From: a virus
Lineage: Duplodnaviria; Heunggongvirae; Uroviricota; Caudoviricetes
Length of the DNA: 64,000 nt
Virus record (IMG/VR): IMGVR_UViG_648028025_000005
Reading direction: 5' to 3' (one strand)
Part shown: one piece after another, positions 7,198-64,000 of the stretch
How the letters are laid out: the number at the start of each line of letters is the position of its first letter
How positions within the stretch are numbered: the stretch's first letter is position 1
Notes under the pieces: model-generated
Told to the model about the DNA's origin: nothing
Databases searched by the model: none
Seen by the model: the letters and a program-made list of their open reading frames with translations, nothing else
Made by a program: the position numbers and the translations under genes

Positions 7198-8088
7198 TCA
7201 GGCTGCCAGATCATCGTTTCCGATGGAAGCATAATAAGCTTTTTCTGCTTCTGCCGGAGGAGTATGGCCCAGCCTTCCCAGCAATCGTCGATTGTTATAC
7301 CAGTCCACCCACGTTAGTGTGGCCAGTTCCACTTCTGCACGGTTTTTCCAGCTCTTACGGTGTATTACCTCCGCTTTGTAAAGACCATTGATGCTCTCAG
7401 CCATCGCGTTGTCATACGAGTCGCCTGTACTCCCTGTTGATGCCAGTAATCCGGCTTCTTTTAGTCGCTCCGTATAGGCCAGTGACACATACTGAGAGCC
7501 TTTATCGCTGTGATGGATGGTGCCAGACGGACGACGGGCCCACAACGCCTGCTCCAGCGCATCCAGCACGAATGTCGTTTCCATAGACGATGAGACCCGC
7601 CACCCCACGATGTATCCGGCAAACACATCAATGATAAACGCCACATAGACGAAGCCCTGCCATGTGCTGACGTAAGTAAAATCAGCCACCCACAGCTGGT
7701 CAGGTCGTTCTGCCACGAACTGACGGTTTACGCGGTCGCCTGCGGCAACGGCTTTCCGGCTGATGGTCGTACGGACCTTTTTACCCCGGAGAACACCGGC
7801 AAGTCCCATAACCGCCATGAGACGTGCCACTGTACATCTGGCCACCCTGATTCCTTCCCGTAACAACTGACGCCAGACTTTACGCACACCGTACACCTGA
7901 TGATTTTCATCGTATACGCGCTGTATCTCTCTCTTCAGCCAGTCGTCGTGCTGCGCACGGGCACTGCGTTTATCCGGATGATGTCGCTGTTGCTGACAAT
8001 GGTAATACGTTGACGGGGCAATATGCAGTTCGCTGCATACCGGTCCGACCCCGTACTGCTCACGCAGCTTATCCAGCAGTGGCATCAT
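7198..8088 (-). CDS. IS629 transposase OrfB (DDE catalytic domain)
   Basis: 296 aa, recognised IS3-family OrfB sequence ([16 protein letters not shown]...). Confidence 0.9.
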
Positions 8089-8411
8089 TTTTTCCAGAGG
8101 CGGTCGAACTCCGCCTTCGCAAAATAAGCGGAAGCCTGGCGAAGGATATCGTTACTGCGGCGCAGTTCACGATTTTCACGTTCCAGCTCTTTCAGACGCT
8201 GACGTTCAGCGCTGGTGAGCCCACCATCACCGCCCCCGGTATCCCGCTCATGCTGGCGAACCCAGACACGCAGGGTCTCCGGCGTACAGCCAATCTTTGG
8301 GGCAATGGAACAAATTGCCGCCCACTGTGAGTCATATTCATCCTGACTTTCCAGAACCATACGAATCGCCCGCTGACGGACTTCGGGGGAAAAACGAGTA
8401 TTTTTAGTCAT
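8085..8411 (-). CDS. IS629 transposase OrfA
   Basis: 108 aa HTH protein [19 protein letters not shown]...; overlaps orfB start at A-rich run (GGAAAAAATGATG). Confidence 0.9.
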
Positions 8412-9499
8412 CCTGTTTACCTCTTTCTCAGGGAGTTTAGTCTCCAGGATTTCCGGGGCGGTTCATATACTTTTAGTGTGCTTTGATTCTGATATATCAT
8501 CTTTAATTATCTTGATGATTCTTTCATTCTGCCATAGAAGTGATGGTGCAGATATATAATAATAGTTAAAGCATGAATTATTTTTTAAGCAATCAAGCAC
8601 AAAAATAGCACCTAGCGAGTGCCCCCATATACCGATTCTGGAACTGTTCGGAGCAATAGTACTAACCCATGGCATGATCTGAGTTAGTAATAATTCTCGG
8701 AAAGACTGGCTTCCTCCACCAGTAAAGTAGATCCATGCTGGTTTAGAGTTATCAACAATAGCATTTTCACCATCAGGAGTATAATCGTAAGCACGGCGAT
8801 GAATGCTAAGGTTATTCCAAGATTCATAACCAAGTGTAACTAACACTGGTGGATTGGGTAGTGCATCAATAACAGGCAGAATATCAGAAATGTAATTGTT
8901 GGCACTATTCCCATCAAGTATATAAAGAGTTGCATTATTTTTTTTAATGTTTTTTGGAGTAAAAATACATATTTTATATTTGGTGTCATGGTTAATTGAG
9001 TTAAATATGCGTGTTTGACAATGAATGTCCATATGTTTAGTCATGCGTTCTCCCCATGAGCATTAAAGGATGCTTAAGATATGCTATGTCACTGATAAAA
9101 AATTTGTTGTGTGTGTTTAGTTATTTTATCTACCTCCATTATGATTTAAGACTGATATATGTTATCAGCAAAGGTACATCGTTATTATTTTACCTGTCAA
9201 TACATTTGATATTGATTATCGTTTACATCGCTTGCTTAGGAAATTGAAGGCAGGTAACTATCATGTCAATGAACTAACCCACAGTCTAACGTACTTCTTT
9301 CCCCAATCACCAACAACCAAATTCCTGTTATCACCACTGGGATTTTGGCGCAACTTCATGGTGCAGAGGTAAATAGCATCAAGCAAAATCTCTTTTTCCG
9401 TTGTTGTCCTTATGGGACGTCTGTCTTTCTGACCGATTTCATATTGGCGAGGTAATGGGAAGTTAAGTAGAATAGCTGCGGGTGCTTGAGGCTATCTGC

Positions 9500-9648
9500 C
9501 TCGGGCATGAACACCAACGGCAGATAGAGAAAAGCCCCAGTTAACATTACGCGTCCTGCAAGACGCTTAACATTAATCTGAGGCTCAATCTATGAACGGC
9601 AAATCTAGGTTAGCCTCTTACGTGCCGAAAGGCAAGGAGAAGCAGGCT
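9500..9648. promoter_or_regulatory. hok leader region; expected location of mok start and antisense sok RNA
   Basis: by analogy with hok/sok loci only; in-frame upstream extension of hok ORF begins at 9592; no sok promoter mapped. Confidence 0.3.
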
Positions 9649-9804
9649 ATGAAGCAGCAAAAGGCGATGTTAATCGCCCTGATCGTCATCTGTTTAACCG
9701 TCATAGTGACGGCACTGGTAACGAGGAAAGACCTCTGCGAGGTACGAATCCGAACCGGCCAGACGGAGGTCGCTGTCTTCACAGCTTACGAACCTGAGGA
9801 GTAA
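9649..9804 (+). CDS. hok: Hok/Gef-family type I toxin (HokD/RelF-like, 51 aa)
   Basis: MKQQKAMLIALIVICLTVIVTALVTRKDLCEVRIRTGQTEVAVFTAYEPEE; single transmembrane helix; followed by terminator. Confidence 0.85.
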   Translation: MKQQKAMLIALIVICLTVIVTALVTRKDLCEVRIRTGQTEVAVFTAYEPEE

Positions 9805-12046: not shown

Positions 12047-12197
12047 GGATATATAGTGATGAGGGTTATGTTTTCTGTGTTTATAATTAACATGTTTATT
12101 TTTTGATGGTCATGTATTGTGGAAGGTAGATAAAATGTTGCCTGGTGAATTGAAAATATTGATAATCAATCTTCATCATTAAATAAAAGGAGTGCTT

Positions 12198-13016
12198 ATG
12201 TGGATTGTGTTAGTACTGTCACTGTCAACTCTCAGTTGGCATAAGGTAGTGGCTTTTTCATTGTTGACGGTGTCTGTTGTCCTGGCTGTGCTTAATGATA
12301 TTATTGATTGGTCGGTGTTATTTTTTGTTGCTACAATCGTTTTTTTTATTATTTTGAAGTTCAACTGGAAATATAACGCCTGGGCTAAATCTATATATGA
12401 AGTTGGCATAGTTTTATCAGCCATAGCATTATCTTTCCATCTATGGCCAGGGTTTCACAATCCTGTAGTGCTAAATTCTGTTACTGTTGGCCCTCAGAGT
12501 ACTCCCTATACAATGTATTTTAATTTTGATAAAGCGCTGGTGCCATTTTTGTTAGTCCTGTGTACATCTTCTTTGTTTAAAAAAGAAGTAAAATCAGAAG
12601 TGTCTTTGTGGAAGTGGGGGGCTCTGTCGCTCTCTGTTCCTCTTATCCTGTTTTTGGCTGTTTTTTTTGGTGGATTAAAGCCAGAGATTCATTTTCCTGA
12701 GTGGTTGCCAGAGTTTATATTGGCTAATTTGTTTTTTGTGTCTCTGGCAGAGGAATCATTATTTAGAGGGTATATTCAATCACGGCTATCAGAAGTAACG
12801 TCTCCATTGGTTGCATTAATTGTGGCGGCTTTGTTGTTTGGTTTTTATCACTATTCAGGTGGTGCTTTACTTGTATTATTTGCCACGTTATCTGGTGTTG
12901 TGTATGGATTGTCATGGATGTGGAGTGGGCGTTTGTGGGTTGCCACCCTTTTCCATTTTGGTTTGAATCTGTGTCACTTGTTATTCTTTACCTATCCATT
13001 TTTAAAACATAATTGA
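12198..13016 (+). CDS. CPBP-family intramembrane metalloprotease (CAAX protease / Abi family)
   Basis: polytopic membrane protein with the three CPBP motifs EESLFRGY, FGFYH, HFGLN; AT-rich moron absent from prophage B. Confidence 0.75.
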   Translation: MWIVLVLSLSTLSWHKVVAFSLLTVSVVLAVLNDIIDWSVLFFVATIVFFIILKFNWKYNAWAKSIYEVGIVLSAIALSFHLWPGFHNPVVLNSVTVGPQSTPYTMYFNFDKALVPFLLVLCTSSLFKKEVKSEVSLWKWGALSLSVPLILFLAVFFGGLKPEIHFPEWLPEFILANLFFVSLAEESLFRGYIQSRLSEVTSPLVALIVAALLFGFYHYSGGALLVLFATLSGVVYGLSWMWSGRLWVATLFHFGLNLCHLLFFTYPFLKHN

Positions 13017-13637: not shown

Positions 13638-14351
13638 ATGGTTGTTGTCTGTTCAGTTATCATGGTTTGCTCCCCAATTAATATTTTTCTTGAAAAGGAT
13701 ACGTTGTCACTTAAGCCCGGCTCAGTCGTTCTGGCCACCAAATGCATCAGGGCGCTTTTCCTTATGCATTATGGCAAAGTTAAAATTTTCGATATAAACC
13801 ATTCCATAGTAAGTCAATATCTGGAAATTCAGCATAAGCTGACAAGAACTCATCTGACTGACGTTCCGCTTTATCTGTCACTGGAACCCAACAACCCTGC
13901 GTTGGCTGAGGCTTTAATTACCAGCCAGAGATTTTCCGGAGATACCACGGATATGTTTCTTATGATGGCATGCCTGTCGCTGTTTGAATCAGATGAACGG
14001 ATATTATTATTTTTAAGTGGATGTTTATCCAGTATAAGTGCCAAAGTCAGGGCGATAATTCAGACAGATATATCAGCAAGCTGGACGCTTGGTGCGATTG
14101 CGTTACGCCTGCATATGAGTGAGAGTTTGTTAAAGATAAAACTGAAAAATGAAGGGCACATGTTCAGTCGCTTGTTGCTGGAAGAGCGGATGCGTGTTGC
14201 TGTGAATATGTTATGTTCCCGGCATGGATATGGACAGGCTATAGCAGAAAAATGCGGTTATTCAAGCAGGTCCTACTTTATTTCTGTATTTCACCGCTAT
14301 TATGGCTTCCCGCCAGACAGATATGTATCCAGGCAAGGGCTTGATTATTGA
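13638..14351 (+). CDS. AraC-family transcriptional regulator (prophage-borne, YdeO/GadX-like)
   Basis: 237 aa; C-terminal AraC HTH (AIAEKCGYSSRSYFISVFHRYYGFPP); paralog in B at 61650-62363. Confidence 0.8.
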   Translation: MVVVCSVIMVCSPINIFLEKDTLSLKPGSVVLATKCIRALFLMHYGKVKIFDINHSIVSQYLEIQHKLTRTHLTDVPLYLSLEPNNPALAEALITSQRFSGDTTDMFLMMACLSLFESDERILLFLSGCLSSISAKVRAIIQTDISASWTLGAIALRLHMSESLLKIKLKNEGHMFSRLLLEERMRVAVNMLCSRHGYGQAIAEKCGYSSRSYFISVFHRYYGFPPDRYVSRQGLDY

Positions 14352-14669: not shown

Positions 14670-14734
14670 AAATGTCTCACAATTCAGGCGGTTGACTGTT
14701 GTCTGGTTTGCGGGGAGTTTGTTAAAAGAAACTG

Positions 14735-14842
14735 GCATGGTGAATCCCCCTGTGCGGAGGGGCAATCAGCGAGTAGGTATATGGGATAATCGCGGATTCA
14801 GGTGCTGGTACTGAATTCACCGGGAGGCACCCGGCACCATGC
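14735..14842. promoter_or_regulatory. conserved ~105-bp non-coding element upstream of nanS-p (copy A)
   Basis: ~90% identical copy at 63442-63549; contains hairpin CCCCCTGTGCGGAGGGG; A copy followed by hairpins at ~14868-14920. Confidence 0.35.
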
Positions 14843-15118
14843 AATGGCACATAGCGCCACTCTCCAGCCCCTCTCCGGAGGGGCTTTCTTATGGACAAAA
14901 AAAGCCCGCGCAGGGAGACGCGGGCGGCAAGGAATAAACAACAAAACGTGAAGTAATATTTCAGCTGGCGAATAATATCCGACAGTAATCACTCTGCGCA
15001 ATAGCGCGGCCTTTTTCGTATTGCGGGCTGTTGTCTCTCTTCTGCCATTGTCCTGTAACTTCCGGACTTCAGCCCGCTCCTCATTTTACTCACAATATTA
15101 TCCCGGCCGGGAGGATTC

Positions 15119-58146: not shown

Positions 58147-58446
58147 TTATAAGAAATCGGTTTCATAACTTTGCCCACCATGATAGATACCGACAATAAA
58201 GACTTTTCTGCTATCAACGGCAAAAGCAATAATCGTTCTGTGGCGGAAATGAGTTACCCGCATCCCCTGGCGAATATCATCGCGTTTATTGCCCCGATGC
58301 GGGAATGTAGAAAACCCATCAAGATAATCAAGAAGCGCATTGGCATAATTGTCAGCAATGACGTTCCCTGCTTTCTCCGTTATATACCTGTGCAGGTTGA
58401 TTATTTGTTGTTCGGCCTCAGGAGTAATGATGACTTCATATGTCAT
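58147..58446 (-). CDS. parE: type II toxin ParE (RelE/ParE superfamily)
   Basis: 99 aa; ParE-like C-terminus RQGMRVTHFRHRTIIAFAVDSRKVFIVGIYHGGQ; downstream of ParD-like antitoxin. Confidence 0.8.
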   Translation of the reverse strand: MTYEVIITPEAEQQIINLHRYITEKAGNVIADNYANALLDYLDGFSTFPHRGNKRDDIRQGMRVTHFRHRTIIAFAVDSRKVFIVGIYHGGQSYETDFL

Positions 58447-58451
58447 GCAGA

Positions 58452-58709
58452 TTACTTCCCGGATCGAATCGCGGCGCGAACCTGTGAAATGGAGCGTCCG
58501 TTGTTTGGATTTTCGCGGATAGAATCAAGAGAGGGGGCGGCTGAATGCGTTAACCACGCTTCGATTGCTTTATCGCGCTCATTCAGTGCGCGAAGCCCTT
58601 CACGAATGACCTCGCTTTCTGAAGCATAGGCACCGGAAGCCACACGGGCGCGCACCATGTCAGCCATTTCGTTAGTTAATGTAATGCTGAATTGTTGGGT
58701 TGTACGCAT
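58452..58709 (-). CDS. parD: type II antitoxin ParD (ribbon-helix-helix)
   Basis: 85 aa from ATG 58709 (MRTTQQFSITLTNEMADMVRARVASGAYASESEVIREGLRAL). Confidence 0.75.
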   Translation of the reverse strand: MRTTQQFSITLTNEMADMVRARVASGAYASESEVIREGLRALNERDKAIEAWLTHSAAPSLDSIRENPNNGRSISQVRAAIRSGK

Positions 58710-58844
58710 GGTAAACCTCACGGAGTAGGATAGAACACCATTCGATGATAGCACGTTGCCTGTTGACGACAACAGAAATCAGAGACAATATTGCCGCACG
58801 CCAGCTTGAACAACTGGCACCTGCTGCGCCAGCAGAGAAAACCG

Positions 58845-60177: not shown

Positions 60178-60537
60178 ATGCTCATAGATTTGGTTTTACC
60201 TTACCCGCCGACGGTGAACACTTACTGGCGACGCCGTGGCAGCACATATTTTATCTCGGAGGAGGGAAAGCGTTATCGCCGGGCTGTGGCGCTTATTGTT
60301 CGCCAGCAGCGGCTGAAATTAAGCCTGTCCGGAAGGCTGGCGATAAAGGTGATTGCAGAGCCACCGGATAAGCGCCGCCGTGACCTGGACAACATTCTGA
60401 AAGCACCGCTGGATGCGCTGACGCATGCGGAAGTGCTCATTGATGACGAGCAGTTTGATGAAATCAATATTGTGCGCGGTCAGCCAGTATCTGGTGGACG
60501 GCTGGGTGTGAAGATTTACAAAATTGAGAGTGAGTGA
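60178..60537 (+). CDS. rusA: Holliday junction resolvase RusA
   Basis: 119 aa; paralog of 11314-11685. Confidence 0.9.
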   Translation: MLIDLVLPYPPTVNTYWRRRGSTYFISEEGKRYRRAVALIVRQQRLKLSLSGRLAIKVIAEPPDKRRRDLDNILKAPLDALTHAEVLIDDEQFDEINIVRGQPVSGGRLGVKIYKIESE

Positions 60538-61076
60538 GCGTAAATATGATATATCCGGAAATTACAGGCAAAAGCGGCGAACATTTACGCCTGAACACGC
60601 TGGAAGCAGTCTGGATCCAGGGGAAATTACGGATGTGGGGGCGGTGGTCGTATATCGGTGGGGGTAAATCCGGAAATATGTTTAACCGGTTACTGGTTTC
60701 GAAAAAGCTGACGAAAACAGCAGTTAATGAGGTTTTACGCAGCATGAAGAAATCCGGGCTGGAAAAACCGGAACTTGAGGCATTTTTTCGGGATATGACC
60801 AGAGGGAAGCAGAAGAGCTGGTTGTCACATTGTACAGACACAGAGGCGTTGATTATTGATCGCGTTATCAGTGAGGTGCTTGGGGAATATCCCGGGCTAA
60901 TCAATATTCTCCGGCAAAGGTACGAAGGACGGGGAATGAGTAAGAGAAAAATGGCAGAATGTTTAAATCGTACTCACCCGGAATGGTGTTTCAGCACATG
61001 TGAGAAACGTATTGCAGGTTGGTTAGCCGTGGCTGAACACATGCTTTATGTACCTATGCACGATTCATTTCGATAA
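60534..61076 (+). CDS. putative late antiterminator Q (positional call; unrelated in sequence to Q of prophage A)
   Basis: 180-aa ORF overlapping rusA stop, in the Q position; no family motif confirmed. Confidence 0.45.
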   Translation: MSVNMIYPEITGKSGEHLRLNTLEAVWIQGKLRMWGRWSYIGGGKSGNMFNRLLVSKKLTKTAVNEVLRSMKKSGLEKPELEAFFRDMTRGKQKSWLSHCTDTEALIIDRVISEVLGEYPGLINILRQRYEGRGMSKRKMAECLNRTHPEWCFSTCEKRIAGWLAVAEHMLYVPMHDSFR

Positions 61077-61317: not shown

Positions 61318-61515
61318 ATGCTGAAACAGCAGGATATGACCGAAACCGCCAGAGTGGTGTTTAATGAATTAAGCGTTACCGAACCGGCGACAGTCGGGGA
61401 GGTTGCGCAGAATACTTACCTTTCACGCGAACGCTGCCAGTTAATACTGACCCAGCTTGTTATGGCGGGTCTGGCAGACTATCAGTGCGGTTGTTACAGA
61501 CGCCTTCAGTCCTGA
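61318..61515 (+). CDS. small putative DNA-binding protein upstream of AraC regulator
   Basis: paralog of 13303-13500. Confidence 0.5.
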   Translation: MLKQQDMTETARVVFNELSVTEPATVGEVAQNTYLSRERCQLILTQLVMAGLADYQCGCYRRLQS

Positions 61516-61649
61516 AGGCTTTTTATTTGTGGTGAATGGGCGGCTGGTGGGGGGGCGACACCTGTCAGTCCTTTGCTTATGTGTTGATGATAATTTACCT
61601 TTTGGGGCTATAATTGAGCTAACCAATTGCTAATGAAAGTAAAATTATA

Positions 61650-62363
61650 ATGGCTGTTGTCTGTTCAGTTATCATGGTTTGCTCCCCAATTAATATTTTT
61701 CTTGAAAAGGATACGTTGTCACTTAAGCCAGGCTCAGTCGTTCTGGCCACCAAATGCATCAGGGAGCTTTTCCTTATGCATTATGGCAAAGTTAAAATTG
61801 TCGATATAAGCGAATCCGTCGTAAGTCAATATCTGGAAAGTCAGCATAAGCTGACGAGGACTCGTCTGACTGACATTCCGCTTTACCTGTTGCTGGAACC
61901 CAACAATCCTGCGTTGGCTGCGGCTTTAATTACCAGCCAGGGATTTTCCGGAGAGGCCACGGATATGTTTCTTATGATGGCCTGCCTGTCTCTGTTTGAA
62001 ACAGATGAACGGATGTCATTGTTTTTAAGTGGATGTTTATCCAGCATAAGTGCCAAAGTCAGGGCGATAATTCAGACAGATATATCAGCAAGCTGGACGC
62101 TTGGTGCGATTGCTCTACAGTTGCATATGAGTGAGAGTTTGTTAAAGACAAAACTGAAAAATGAAGGGGGCATGTTCAGTCGCTTGTTGCTGGAAGAGCG
62201 GATGCGTGTTGCTGTAAATATGTTATGTTCCCGGCATGGATATGGACAGGCTATAGCAGAAAAATGCGGTTATTCAAGCAGGTCCTACTTTATTTCTGTA
62301 TTTCACCGCTATTATGGCTTCCCGCCAGACAGATATGTATCCAGGCAAGGGCTTGATTATTGA
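61650..62363 (+). CDS. AraC-family transcriptional regulator (prophage-borne)
   Basis: 237 aa; paralog of 13638-14351. Confidence 0.8.
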   Translation: MAVVCSVIMVCSPINIFLEKDTLSLKPGSVVLATKCIRELFLMHYGKVKIVDISESVVSQYLESQHKLTRTRLTDIPLYLLLEPNNPALAAALITSQGFSGEATDMFLMMACLSLFETDERMSLFLSGCLSSISAKVRAIIQTDISASWTLGAIALQLHMSESLLKTKLKNEGGMFSRLLLEERMRVAVNMLCSRHGYGQAIAEKCGYSSRSYFISVFHRYYGFPPDRYVSRQGLDY

Positions 62364-62391
62364 TTTTCATCTGATTATTATTTTTTGGCTC

Positions 62392-62467
62392 GGCCCTTTA
62401 GCTCAGTGGTGAGAGCGAGCGACTCATAATCGCCAGGTCGCTGGTTCAAATCCAGCAAGGGCCACCA
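62392..62467 (+). tRNA. tRNA with CAU anticodon (Ile2/Met type)
   Basis: identical in sequence to 14380-14455. Confidence 0.85.
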
Positions 62468-62476
62468 TATCACATA

Positions 62477-62553
62477 CCGCCATTAGCTCATCGGGACAGA
62501 GCGCCAGCCTTCGAAGCTGGCTGCGCGGGGTTCAAGTCCCCGATGGCGGTCCA
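62477..62553 (+). tRNA. tRNA-Arg(UCG), canonical copy
   Basis: acceptor CCGCCAT/ATGGCGG fully paired; anticodon loop CT-TCG-AA; T arm CGGGG-TTCAAGT-CCCCG. Confidence 0.8.
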
Positions 62554-62566
62554 TTATCAGCATCAT

Positions 62567-62643
62567 GCGTTGTTAGCTCAGTCGGACAGAGCAATTGCCT
62601 TCTAAGCAATCGGTCAGTGGTTCGACTCCACTACAACGCGCCA
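62567..62643 (+). tRNA. tRNA-Arg(UCU)
   Basis: anticodon loop CT-TCT-AA; T arm AGTGG-TTCGACT-CCACT. Confidence 0.85.
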
Positions 62644-62649
62644 CACTTA

Positions 62650-62680
62650 TTTTCCAGGCTCGCTTCGGCGGGCCTTTTTT
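62650..62680 (+). terminator. rho-independent terminator after tRNA cluster
   Basis: GGCTCGC-TTCG-GCGGGCC followed by TTTTTT; approximate coordinates. Confidence 0.5.
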
Positions 62681-62812
62681 GTATCTGCGCCACGCCCGGC
62701 GCATATCAACCACAGAGCCTTTCGGGGGTGAGCTTACGGAGTGGTCAGTGTGACTTTCTCTGTGGGCAGATCGCTCCCGGGCGTTGGCTCACCCACCCAA
62801 AGGAACGTCACG

Positions 62813-63244
62813 ATGTTTGGAATCTTCAAAAAGAAAACCCGCAGAGCGGCAGCGGAAATTAAAAAGTTTGAGAAACGCGATCTGGCACAGGCGGTGATTA
62901 ACGCTGCATACCTGGTGGCCTATGCAGATGGTGAATGCGAGGCATCCGAGAAAGCGAAGATCGAACAGGTCTTACGTAATCAGCCTGCGTTGTCTGCGTT
63001 TACCTCGGAAATTAATGCGATTAGCGCAACTATTATCGGTCAGCTGGATACCAATTTTAAAATTGGTCGTCGTGCCGCGTTACGCGAGATTGAGGATGTG
63101 AAACACGATACGCGTGAAGCGGAAGATGTGCTGGATGTGGCGGTGGCCATTGCGGAGGCAGACGGCGAAATTGAGCCGGAAGAGCGCAAGGTGCTGGAAG
63201 AGATTGCCGGTGTTCTGGGTCTTCGTCTGGAGAATCACCTGTGA
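62813..63244 (+). CDS. TerB-family protein (tellurite-resistance TerB-like fold)
   Basis: 143 aa from ATG 62813; two TerB-like repeats with acidic loops (AAYLVAYADGECEASEKAKI and VAVAIAEADGEIEPEERKVL). Confidence 0.6.
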   Translation: MFGIFKKKTRRAAAEIKKFEKRDLAQAVINAAYLVAYADGECEASEKAKIEQVLRNQPALSAFTSEINAISATIIGQLDTNFKIGRRAALREIEDVKHDTREAEDVLDVAVAIAEADGEIEPEERKVLEEIAGVLGLRLENHL

Positions 63245-63408
63245 CGGTAAAACTGCGCCTGGCTGTGGCTGCACTCCTGCTGTTTCTGGTGGTGATGGTG
63301 GATTTCACCAGCAGAATCATGTCGGTGCTGGCGGATGGGGTGCTGGTCTGCGGCATTGTGGTATTGCTGTGGCCGGTGATAAAAAGAAACAGCCTGCATA
63401 ATGCTTGA
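63241..63408 (+). CDS. small membrane protein (55 aa), coupled to TerB-like gene
   Basis: GTG 63241 overlapping TerB-like stop (GTGA); two hydrophobic helices; below track cutoff. Confidence 0.3.
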   Translation: MTVKLRLAVAALLLFLVVMVDFTSRIMSVLADGVLVCGIVVLLWPVIKRNSLHNA

Positions 63409-63441
63409 TTTTTTTGTTTGCTGTTTATTAAAAACACTTCT

Positions 63442-63549
63442 GCATGGTGAATCCCCCTGTGCGGAGGGGCGATCAGCAACCAGGTATATGGGATAATCGC
63501 GGATTCAGGTGCTGATACTGAATTCACCGGGAGGCACCCGGCACCATGC
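63442..63549. promoter_or_regulatory. conserved ~105-bp non-coding element upstream of nanS-p (copy B)
   Basis: ~90% identical to 14735-14842. Confidence 0.35.
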
Positions 63550-63721
63550 TTTGCCACAAAAGTGTTGTTTCTGTTTTTCTCAAACTATCATCGTTATCCC
63601 TTTATTTCCGGCTGCGCATGGCGTGGCCTTTTTTTACGACCAGCCACTGGCAGATGGCCATCCTGTAATTTGATTCCGGTTCCGGCTTTTTAACTCTGTT
63701 CCTGTACACGGGAGAAATTCG

Positions 63722-64000
63722 ATGTCGATTAAACATTATGATGTTGTCAGGGCGGCGTCGCCGTCAGACCTTGCGGAAAAGCTGACACAAAAACTGAAGG
63801 AGGGGTGGCAGCCATTTGGCAGCCCGGTGGCCATCACGCCTTATACTCTGATGCAGGCCATTGCGGCGGAAGGTGATGTCACCACACCTGTGTTGGTGAA
63901 GCCGTCGGATGGAGAAGGCACAGTAATCAGCGCCACCAGAGACCCGGAGTATTACTTTGTTGTGGTTCTGGCGGGGCAGTCAAACAGCATGGCATATGGT
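63722..64000 (+). CDS. nanS: prophage sialate O-acetylesterase NanS-p, 5' part only (runs off window)
   Basis: MSIKHYDVVRAASPSDLAEKLTQKLKEGWQPFG and VVLAGQSNSMAYG match paralog at 15119; no stop before window end. Confidence 0.8.
   Translation, partial: MSIKHYDVVRAASPSDLAEKLTQKLKEGWQPFGSPVAITPYTLMQAIAAEGDVTTPVLVKPSDGEGTVISATRDPEYYFVVVLAGQSNSMAYG

Follow-up and report, generated by a model that had tools for sequence, protein, structure and literature searches.

The closest described relatives of the locus analysed here are the tciA-tciB(-tciC) genes of phage P1 and the genes of phage JLK-2012 that are likewise annotated under the names tciA and tciB. The tci name is said to have been derived by Lobocka et al. 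2004, in phage P1, from TerB similarity and not from experiment. We compared these and other systems with a 64,000-nt stretch of caudoviricete DNA (IMG/VR record IMGVR_UViG_648028025_000005; "the window" denotes this whole stretch), in which two prophages, A and B, were set side by side and in which prophage B carries a cassette consisting of a structured leader RNA, the TerB-family gene tciA and the small membrane-protein gene tciB. In JLK-2012 the layout Q - tRNAs - tciA - tciB - yjhS (nanS-p) - S R Rz is identical to that of the window, with 90% DNA identity. P1 has both families, likewise with tciA first, in frames that abut or overlap beside phage tRNA genes; it differs in that P1-type loci have no structured leader and that the P1 pair lies upstream of ban and not in a Q-controlled late operon. 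No comparable small gene corresponding to tciC directly follows tciB in the open reading frame (ORF) list or in RefSeq, the small RNA (sRNA) gene STnc100 starting 5 nt on, and no P1 TciC similarity search was made.

TerB of the terZABCDEF operon (structure 2JXU) is homologous to TciA over its full length, with both acidic ADGE-type motifs conserved, whereas TciA stands alone in the phage with no TerZ, A, C, D, E or F among its neighbours (tRNAs, DUF3927, nanS-p), has a 55-aa membrane protein and not TerC as partner, and begins with a basic N-terminus (MFGIFKKK). In Shango SngA, Bunzi BnzA and Dionysus DinB a TerB-type domain is also combined with membrane components, and a membrane surveillance role has been proposed for TerB-domain defence components (bioRxiv 10.1101/2025.09.30.679545); the PADLOC models of these three systems, however, do not match TciA at E ≤ 1, and tciAB is phage-encoded and has no ATPase, helicase or pore-forming partner. 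The stx1 and stx2 operons resemble tciAB in being two small genes in a slot after an ileZ-argN-argO-type tRNA terminator and before STnc100 and nanS-p, although their proteins are unrelated and stx2A retains just the first hairpin of the leader and the Shine-Dalgarno (SD) region. Pseudoknotted 5' leaders that control translation (riboswitches and protein-binding operators) share with the tciA leader a position in the 5' untranslated region, helices that covary, a pseudoknot and strongly conserved junctions left unpaired; the tciA leader differs in matching no Rfam family, in an SD that is not obviously sequestered, and in preceding several unrelated genes.

The cassette itself comprises the following features.

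62686-62794, + strand: structured leader RNA of tciA, about 110 nt, with covarying helices
62800-62804, + strand: SD sequence AAGGA of tciA, 8 nt 5' of the ATG
62813-63244, + strand: tciA, 143-aa TerB-family protein (Pfam TerB, PHROG 632, RefSeq WP_000466957.1)
63241-63408, + strand: tciB, 55-aa DUF3927 protein (Pfam DUF3927, PHROG 1470 'TciB-like', RefSeq WP_000216636.1)

The tciA frame runs from ATG 62813 to TGA 63242-63244; a longer ORF from GTG 62741 was discarded as a merely mechanical extension of the same frame. The initial annotation had called the 143-aa product a TerB-fold protein, and profile searches upheld this: TciA matched Pfam TerB (PF05099) over residues 26-138 with E = 2.9e-16 and 60.2 bits (cut-off 24.4), and a profile built from 13 TciA homologues matched the solved Klebsiella pneumoniae TerB 2JXU with E = 2.7e-15 (residues 13-137 on 19-144). 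PHROG 632, to which TciA belongs, is labelled 'tellurite resistance'. Family alignments of the two ADGE motifs indicated that D39-G40 is nearly invariant and that D117-G118 and E124 are invariant. The AlphaFold2 model is all-helical (predicted local distance difference test score, pLDDT, 88.4), hydropathy analysis revealed no hydrophobic segment, as for a soluble protein, and charge is unevenly spread, residues 1-22 (MFGIFKKKTRR...) carrying +7 and the remainder -13. TciA is 52% identical to P1 TciA. Weak matches to DjlA and DUF533/YebE fell below threshold (Pfam, NCBIfam), and the NCBIfam scan of TciA and TciB returned only DjlA, YmfL and anti-sigma-E matches, all below threshold.

The tciB frame starts at GTG 63241, which shares the letters GTGA with the tciA stop, and ends at 63408, with a GGAG lying 8 nt 5' of the GTG inside tciA. 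Its product matched Pfam DUF3927 (PF13064; E = 4.3e-17, 62.3 bits, cut-off 25) and PHROG 1470 'TciB-like' (E = 4e-30), and is 50% identical to P1 TciB, with D21, F22, S28 and D32 conserved among TciB proteins. Two hydrophobic segments and basic N- and C-termini in the hydropathy profile fit a predicted in-in membrane hairpin. We surveyed adjacency at 20 loci from different species, each encoding a TciA relative, and found a DUF3927-type ORF of 49-79 aa (mostly 50-58) after the TciA relative in 16; its start overlapped the TerB stop by 1-4 nt in 13 of these (ATGA, TAATG, GTGA) and lay 5-29 nt before the stop in 3. The arrangement held from 99% down to 47% TciA identity. Both the Pfam match and this recurrence confirmed the small two-helix membrane ORF with a GTG overlapping the TerB stop that had been described at the outset. 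The start/stop overlap suggests that tciB would be translationally coupled to tciA, and we include such coupling in the explanation of the pair weighed below.

Several observations concern variants of the pair. In phage 434 (L027:2138-3370) the Q-to-nanS-p interval has TciB but no TciA, placed between two membrane proteins, one of 247 aa (PHROG 1521) ahead of it and a small one behind. At two loci the second gene encodes a different protein of 67-68 aa (L019:4441-4644; L023:4398-4604), its start again overlapping the TerB stop; the Pseudomonas version matches PHROG 27356 and the Paracoccus one is similar by eye. Two database proteins, P0004 (197 aa) and P0066 (170 aa), hold TerB and DUF3927 in a single chain; these are perhaps natural fusions, or else products of a frameshift or of misassembly at the GTGA overlap. 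E. coli annotations of a 'DUF3927 domain-containing protein' covering the initial 75 nt of tciA were considered as N-terminus/TciB fusions and set aside, the sole case inspected, FORC_069, being a pseudogene remnant among insertion sequence (IS) elements.

The pair is common. Of 5,426 complete E. coli genomes, about 800 (~15%) carry 80% or more of tciAB, 634 have the whole tRNA-tciAB-nanS arrangement, and 1,144 show any match, with a median of four matching places each when partial matches are counted. The pair and its overlap of 1-4 nt were also found across Enterobacterales and in several Erwinia and Salmonella jumbo phages, which we take to be lytic. The gene pair, whose novelty the initial annotation had implied, is thus already known, as a widely annotated phage accessory module: RefSeq annotation, the P1 and JLK-2012 gene names and the PHROG families all pre-exist, and for the pair itself little changes. 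Repeatedly tciAB lies inside or directly after phage tRNA clusters of differing make-up (L005 of P1, L004 of JLK-2012, L026 and L148-L152 of jumbo phages, L007, L018), including Asn/Thr...Ile (P1), Asn/Thr/Gly, Trp/Cys...Tyr/Gln/Ile, Ser, and Met/Ser/Gln, an association that may be functional or may reflect a shared insertion hotspot.

A structured leader RNA ahead of tciA

About 125 nt before the tciA ATG are conserved across genera, and alignment of the upstream regions indicated that substitutions preserve base pairing. Genomes, phage records and viral contigs together supplied 58 distinct leader copies, and in 58/58 a TerB-type ORF begins 16-23 nt after the leader; these ORFs include a second, diverged TerB subfamily from viral contigs that resembles Klebsiella-phage sequences. 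Four helices, one of them forming a pseudoknot, were mapped on the leader alignment.

62686-62691 with 62698-62703, + strand: helix P1
62710-62717 with 62758-62765 (P5 loop), + strand: pseudoknot helix
62726-62734 with 62786-62794, + strand: helix P4
62739-62746 with 62769-62776, + strand: helix P5

In the MAFFT alignment of the leader 93% of cells paired, compared with 33-46% when partners were slid by 1-3 columns, and double changes occurred in 13 pairs, values that 0/500 shuffles reached. With the diverged copies added, 91.7% of cells paired (27-46% when slid) and double changes occurred in 21/31 pairs, in sequences that are related, fall into a handful of clades and were aligned the second time by a fit to three of the four helices. 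The pseudoknot, though absent from the covariance model, was 94.7% paired with the diverged copies included, and RNAalifold independently predicted helix P1 and the long-range (pseudoknot) helix, both with compensatory changes. Helix P5 is unclear in clade L013. Among leader copies AGAGCCUUUCAGGGG and CCUGAGCGCU, both unpaired, hardly vary, the SD sequence AAAGGAA is conserved in all of them, and the leader ends ~6 nt before the SD. On this covariation the leader is a conserved RNA structure.

The covariance model, built without the pseudoknot, found a single leader copy in the window (166.6 bits), and Rfam 15 at E ≤ 1 returned no family at 62684-62812 nor at the copy ahead of ant (L001:12914-13069); the RNA family may therefore be new. 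A hammerhead-like CUGANGA core was considered in the conserved CCUGAGCG junction and rejected, its GA being missing on inspection by eye and no Rfam ribozyme family matching. A pattern scan of metagenomes gave nearly all chance matches, with real leaders at three of the loci inspected. P1-type tciA genes had no leader by covariance-model search, and the leader accompanies the pair in the Erwinia and Salmonella jumbo phages.

Diverged copies, which retain all four helices with differing sequences, were found before other late-region genes.

L001:12914-13069: diverged leader copy (86 bits) before the 'phage antirepressor' gene ant, between lysozyme (R) and Rz of the same prophage
L031:7075-7226: diverged leader copy
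L060:3688-3815: diverged leader copy
L095:157-284, - strand: diverged leader copy

The ant-type class of leader occurs in 721 complete E. coli genomes; among phage records it was found in 292, most Stx1a and Stx2a (Shiga toxin) phages included. Another diverged copy precedes an unannotated 246-aa ORF of unknown family in a viral contig with a Klebsiella-type TerB variant. Leader copies are uniform in orientation, each ending at an SD and ATG, and they precede at least three unrelated downstream genes. We tentatively propose, with confidence a little short of even, that the leader represents an undescribed family of cis-acting phage RNAs gating late-operon accessory genes, namely tciAB, the ant gene of most Stx1/Stx2 phages and the Klebsiella-phage ORF. 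Such an RNA might work as a riboswitch or be bound by a late protein of the phage; alternatively it might be a ribozyme or processing element by which the message is released from tRNA or terminated transcripts upstream. As a well-supported structured RNA outside Rfam, upstream of late-region genes in most Stx phages, it may constitute an undescribed layer of control over late-operon accessory genes.

The cargo slot and its transcription

The cassette occupies a slot within the late region of prophage B, whose remaining features are as follows.

60534-61076: Q-type antiterminator (DUF1133, also matching Phage_antitermQ; Pfam)
62392-62643, + strand: tRNA cluster Met/Ile(cat), Arg(tcg), Arg(tct) (ARAGORN, Rfam tRNA), the left border of the slot
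62656-62682, + strand: intrinsic-terminator-like hairpin (8 pairs, 6 G-C) and T-run, just 3' of the tRNAs and 4 nt ahead of the leader
63413-63585, + strand: STnc100/PasD-family prophage sRNA gene (Rfam RF02076), the right border of the slot
63610-63635, + strand: terminator-like hairpin with a T7 run, between the sRNA gene and nanS-p
63722-64000, + strand: start of nanS-p, encoding a SASA-family esterase with a DUF1737 N-terminus (Pfam DUF1737), cut at the window end

Junctions between the prophages were placed by blastn. Homology between A and B covers the tRNAs and the terminator, breaks at 14670/62683 and resumes at 14717/63423, leaving 739 bp of slot content in B and 46 bp in A. Compared with the Stx2a phage Stx2a_WGPS9, left-hand homology to B stops at 62691 and is followed there by stx2AB, the STnc100 sRNA gene, AsxR and nanS-p, so that the junctions from both comparisons fall at 62683-62691 and 63423-63428. 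Two earlier proposals, that prophage A has no gene in this slot and that the slot is the one used by stx, are thereby borne out, the latter to within a few bases. For the interval 62644-63721 as a whole the gene pair was correctly described, and the account was incomplete in leaving out the terminator, the structured leader RNA and the sRNA gene.

The sRNA gene matched STnc100 (RF02076) with 104.7 bits against a gathering score of 47, its 173 nt being matched end to end by, and shorter than, the 206-position Rfam model. Prophage A has a copy at 14706-14896 (+), in both prophages the gene lies directly upstream of nanS-p, and a copy follows stx2B in Stx2a_WGPS9. An STnc100-type sRNA has been located 75 nt downstream of stx2 (PMC12370729), and such sRNAs are related to PasD sRNAs (bioRxiv 10.64898/2026.05.13.724894). 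The tRNA cluster, which RefSeq calls Ile/Arg/Arg, is 94.7% identical to ileZ-argN-argO of Stx2a_WGPS9. By these junctions tciAB and stx are alternative occupants of a site with the tRNA terminator on its left and the sRNA gene on its right, a tidy if modest point, and no tciAB was found in the Stx phages of the phage collection.

In the 65 nt before stx2A of Stx2a_WGPS9 (L002:3782-3847) the tRNA terminator, a hairpin like helix P1 and the SD context of the tciA leader are kept and the 86-nt core is gone, a pattern suggesting that stx2AB took the place of core and cargo within one and the same cassette frame. In the prophage PPompW_EH2246 (L273:4329-5787) the tRNA cluster is followed by leader sequence that the IS110-family element ISEc20 interrupts after 45 nt, with the terminase directly after ISEc20 and with tciAB and the lysis region missing.

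These junctions bear on whether the leader might be not an RNA element and instead a conserved DNA boundary or recombination sequence flanking exchangeable modules, with its pairing incidental. The leader does mark a junction where phage cassettes differ, the region upstream of stx2A keeps just its two ends, and in PPompW prophages an IS110-family element sits 45 nt into it. Base pairing kept despite sequence change is, however, not expected of DNA linkers, and the leader has compensatory changes in 21/31 pairs, 92% pairing against 27-46% when slid, a pseudoknot 95% paired though outside the search model, and one orientation throughout, ending at SD and ATG. We therefore regard a DNA boundary as very unlikely and retain the reading of a cis-acting RNA.

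Three terminator-like hairpins lie between Q and nanS-p, at 61502, at 62656 (62656-62675 with its T-run) and at 63610. The hairpin and T-run of 62656-62682 precede the leader in most prophage loci, tRNA-less loci included. A consensus scan found no + strand promoter-like site between this terminator and the tciA ATG (62684-62812). Because a terminator abuts the leader with no promoter-like site between, transcription of the cassette would come mainly from Q-modified, terminator-resistant RNA polymerase. Expression of tciAB mainly by Q-dependent late read-through, on induction, is on this layout the likeliest arrangement, as for stx2, which is known to depend on Q read-through from pR' (PMC7547250), and the Q-dependent late expression put forward in the initial annotation is to that extent plausible.

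A promoter-like site (TTGATT-17-TATTAT, 62353-62381) lies just ahead of the tRNAs and raises the alternative that tciAB serves lysogenic conversion, being on in the lysogen through read-through from this tRNA promoter or through an unrecognised one and giving a Ter-like benefit to the host, such as tellurite or oxidative-stress tolerance, resistance to pore-forming colicins, or phage exclusion. The TerB-containing ter operon is tied to resistance to tellurite, phage (Phi) and colicin (PacB) (PMC7371120), enterohaemorrhagic E. coli (EHEC) genomes hold several copies (median 4 matching places), and the position is that of stx and other conversion genes. Set against this, a strong terminator stands between tRNAs and cassette, and TerB is one of seven ter genes, the other six of which are not here (RefSeq neighbours). 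Moreover, leader, tciA and tciB occur together in Erwinia jumbo phages, taken as lytic and thus having no lysogen to benefit, which argues against a cargo of purely lysogenic benefit. We consider lysogenic conversion unlikely.

The cassette is not tied to the slot. Many E. coli prophages have tciAB between a methyltransferase or a toxin-antitoxin pair and the holin, and in prophages the pair is always in the late region upstream of the lysis genes, even without tRNAs or nanS-p; in many no other annotated gene intervenes between it and the holin gene, which starts ~560 nt downstream. This placement, together with the size of TciB, a two-helix membrane protein as small as a holin or antiholin, and the presence of the leader family before ant inside the lysis cassette, would suit an accessory of lysis timing, in which a small membrane protein and a peripheral partner modulate membrane energisation or holin triggering. 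Yet the pair does not adjoin lysis genes in P1 and the jumbo phages, its knock-down in P1 gave no plating defect, and TciB is similar to no Pfam holin family, and we hold a role in lysis timing to be highly improbable.

Possible roles of TciA and TciB

The reading we favour, with evenly divided confidence, is that TciA and TciB would form a late-transcribed, membrane-associated complex serving the phage in lytic growth, with competitor exclusion or envelope protection as its likeliest role. The interval would be a 'moron', an accessory cassette within the late operon of the prophage, transcribed mainly from the late promoter by Q-modified RNA polymerase, that is, on induction, with weak read-through from the tRNA promoter possible in lysogens. 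The leader would be a cis-acting element that influences how the message is translated or processed, or how stable it is. TciB would tether TciA to the inner membrane, so that the pair would be the minimal equivalent of TerB modules linked to the membrane (TerB with TerC, DjlA, YebE). In favour of such a membrane link are the +7 charge of TciA residues 1-22, the weak DjlA and DUF533/YebE matches below threshold, and the description of TerB proteins as amphitropic in work cited in bioRxiv 10.1101/2025.09.30.679545. The complex would then alter a membrane or ion property of the infected cell, with the outcome that the cell is protected or competitors (superinfecting phages, colicins) are excluded during lytic growth, and it would be dispensable for plaque formation.

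A role in the lytic cycle is supported by the presence of pair and leader in Erwinia and Salmonella jumbo phages, by the location of the P1 pair directly upstream of ban, and by a CRISPR interference screen in which P1 tciA, tciB and tciC were non-essential (PMC10695390). By analogy with the ter operon, competition with other phages, possibly as superinfection exclusion, has also been suggested for phage TerB, both in a review of jumbo phages (PMC7824862) and in a survey of Klebsiella prophages (PMC7371120).

The following points weigh against this reading. Our literature search found no experiment on tciAB function, transcript, protein interaction or phenotype. The promoter scan was a simple sigma-70 consensus search, which could miss a weak or non-sigma-70 promoter. 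Foldseek comparison of the TciA model with the PDB gave weak matches (best E = 0.023; template modelling score, TM, 0.55-0.62; TerB-like 2H5N and 2OU3), so the TerB assignment rests on the sequence profiles. The PADLOC-DB 2.0 scan gave no usable defence model for TciA, the sole match being to PDC-S48, partial and with E = 0.0035 over 35 residues, and nothing for TciB; the label 'stress/defence-type' in the initial annotation had the family name as its only basis and finds no counterpart in these models. The partnership is not obligatory, TciB occurring without TciA in phage 434 and another small protein replacing DUF3927 beside Pseudomonas and Paracoccus TciA relatives. Finally, a CCUUU of the leader could pair with the AAAGG of the SD, but sequestration of the SD as the leader's mode found no support in the minimum-free-energy fold, which leaves the SD unpaired.

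The similarity of TciA to operon TerB over its full length also suggests counter-defence, in which TciA would act as a TerB mimic that titrates or blocks host TerB/Ter systems (the EHEC ter island, Shango, Bunzi, Dionysus) and so protects the lytic cycle. Lytic and temperate phages both carry tciAB, its expression is inferred to accompany that of the late/lytic genes, and among the validated defence systems with TerB domains is one directed against jumbo phages (bioRxiv 10.1101/2025.09.30.679545). TciA is nevertheless unlike the defence-system TerB models of PADLOC, a soluble decoy needs no dedicated membrane partner such as TciB, and the literature yielded no experiment on such a role; we judge a decoy of this kind quite unlikely, and a membrane-associated complex active in lytic growth remains the reading we prefer. 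Should tciAB prove to be a superinfection-exclusion or counter-defence module, it would matter for competition and recombination among the numerous lambdoid prophages that EHEC carries.

Neighbouring features of the window

Over its last 1.7 kb the window matches lambdoid prophages of O26, O103 and O111 EHEC, for example strain E2865, with 100% identity. RefSeq gives the gene order of the identical region as RusA, a DUF1133 protein, a small hypothetical gene, an AraC-type regulator and tRNA-Ile/Arg/Arg, followed by a 'tellurite resistance TerB family protein', a 'DUF3927 family protein', the SASA-family esterase (nanS-p), holin, lysozyme and further lysis and packaging genes. A RelE/ParE-ParD toxin-antitoxin pair lies at 58147-58772 (-), upstream of the DUF968-RusA-Q block (RefSeq, identical region).

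Both prophages encode a 237-aa AraC-family regulator between Q and the tRNAs, at 61650-62363 (+) and 13638-14351 (+), most similar to YdeO and GadX (NCBIfam matches below threshold); presumably it resembles the prophage-encoded acid-stress and type III secretion system regulators of EHEC. The gene in B has its own promoter-like site at 61587-61614. Between the Q-region and the AraC-type gene prophage A has a strongly hydrophobic 274-aa ORF (12192-13016, +) that B lacks. Further Rfam matches above gathering score in the window were an ALIL pseudoknot (IS3-type frameshift element) at 8014-8130 (-), a sok antitoxin RNA at 9480-9654 (+) and DicF at 48602-48653 (-).

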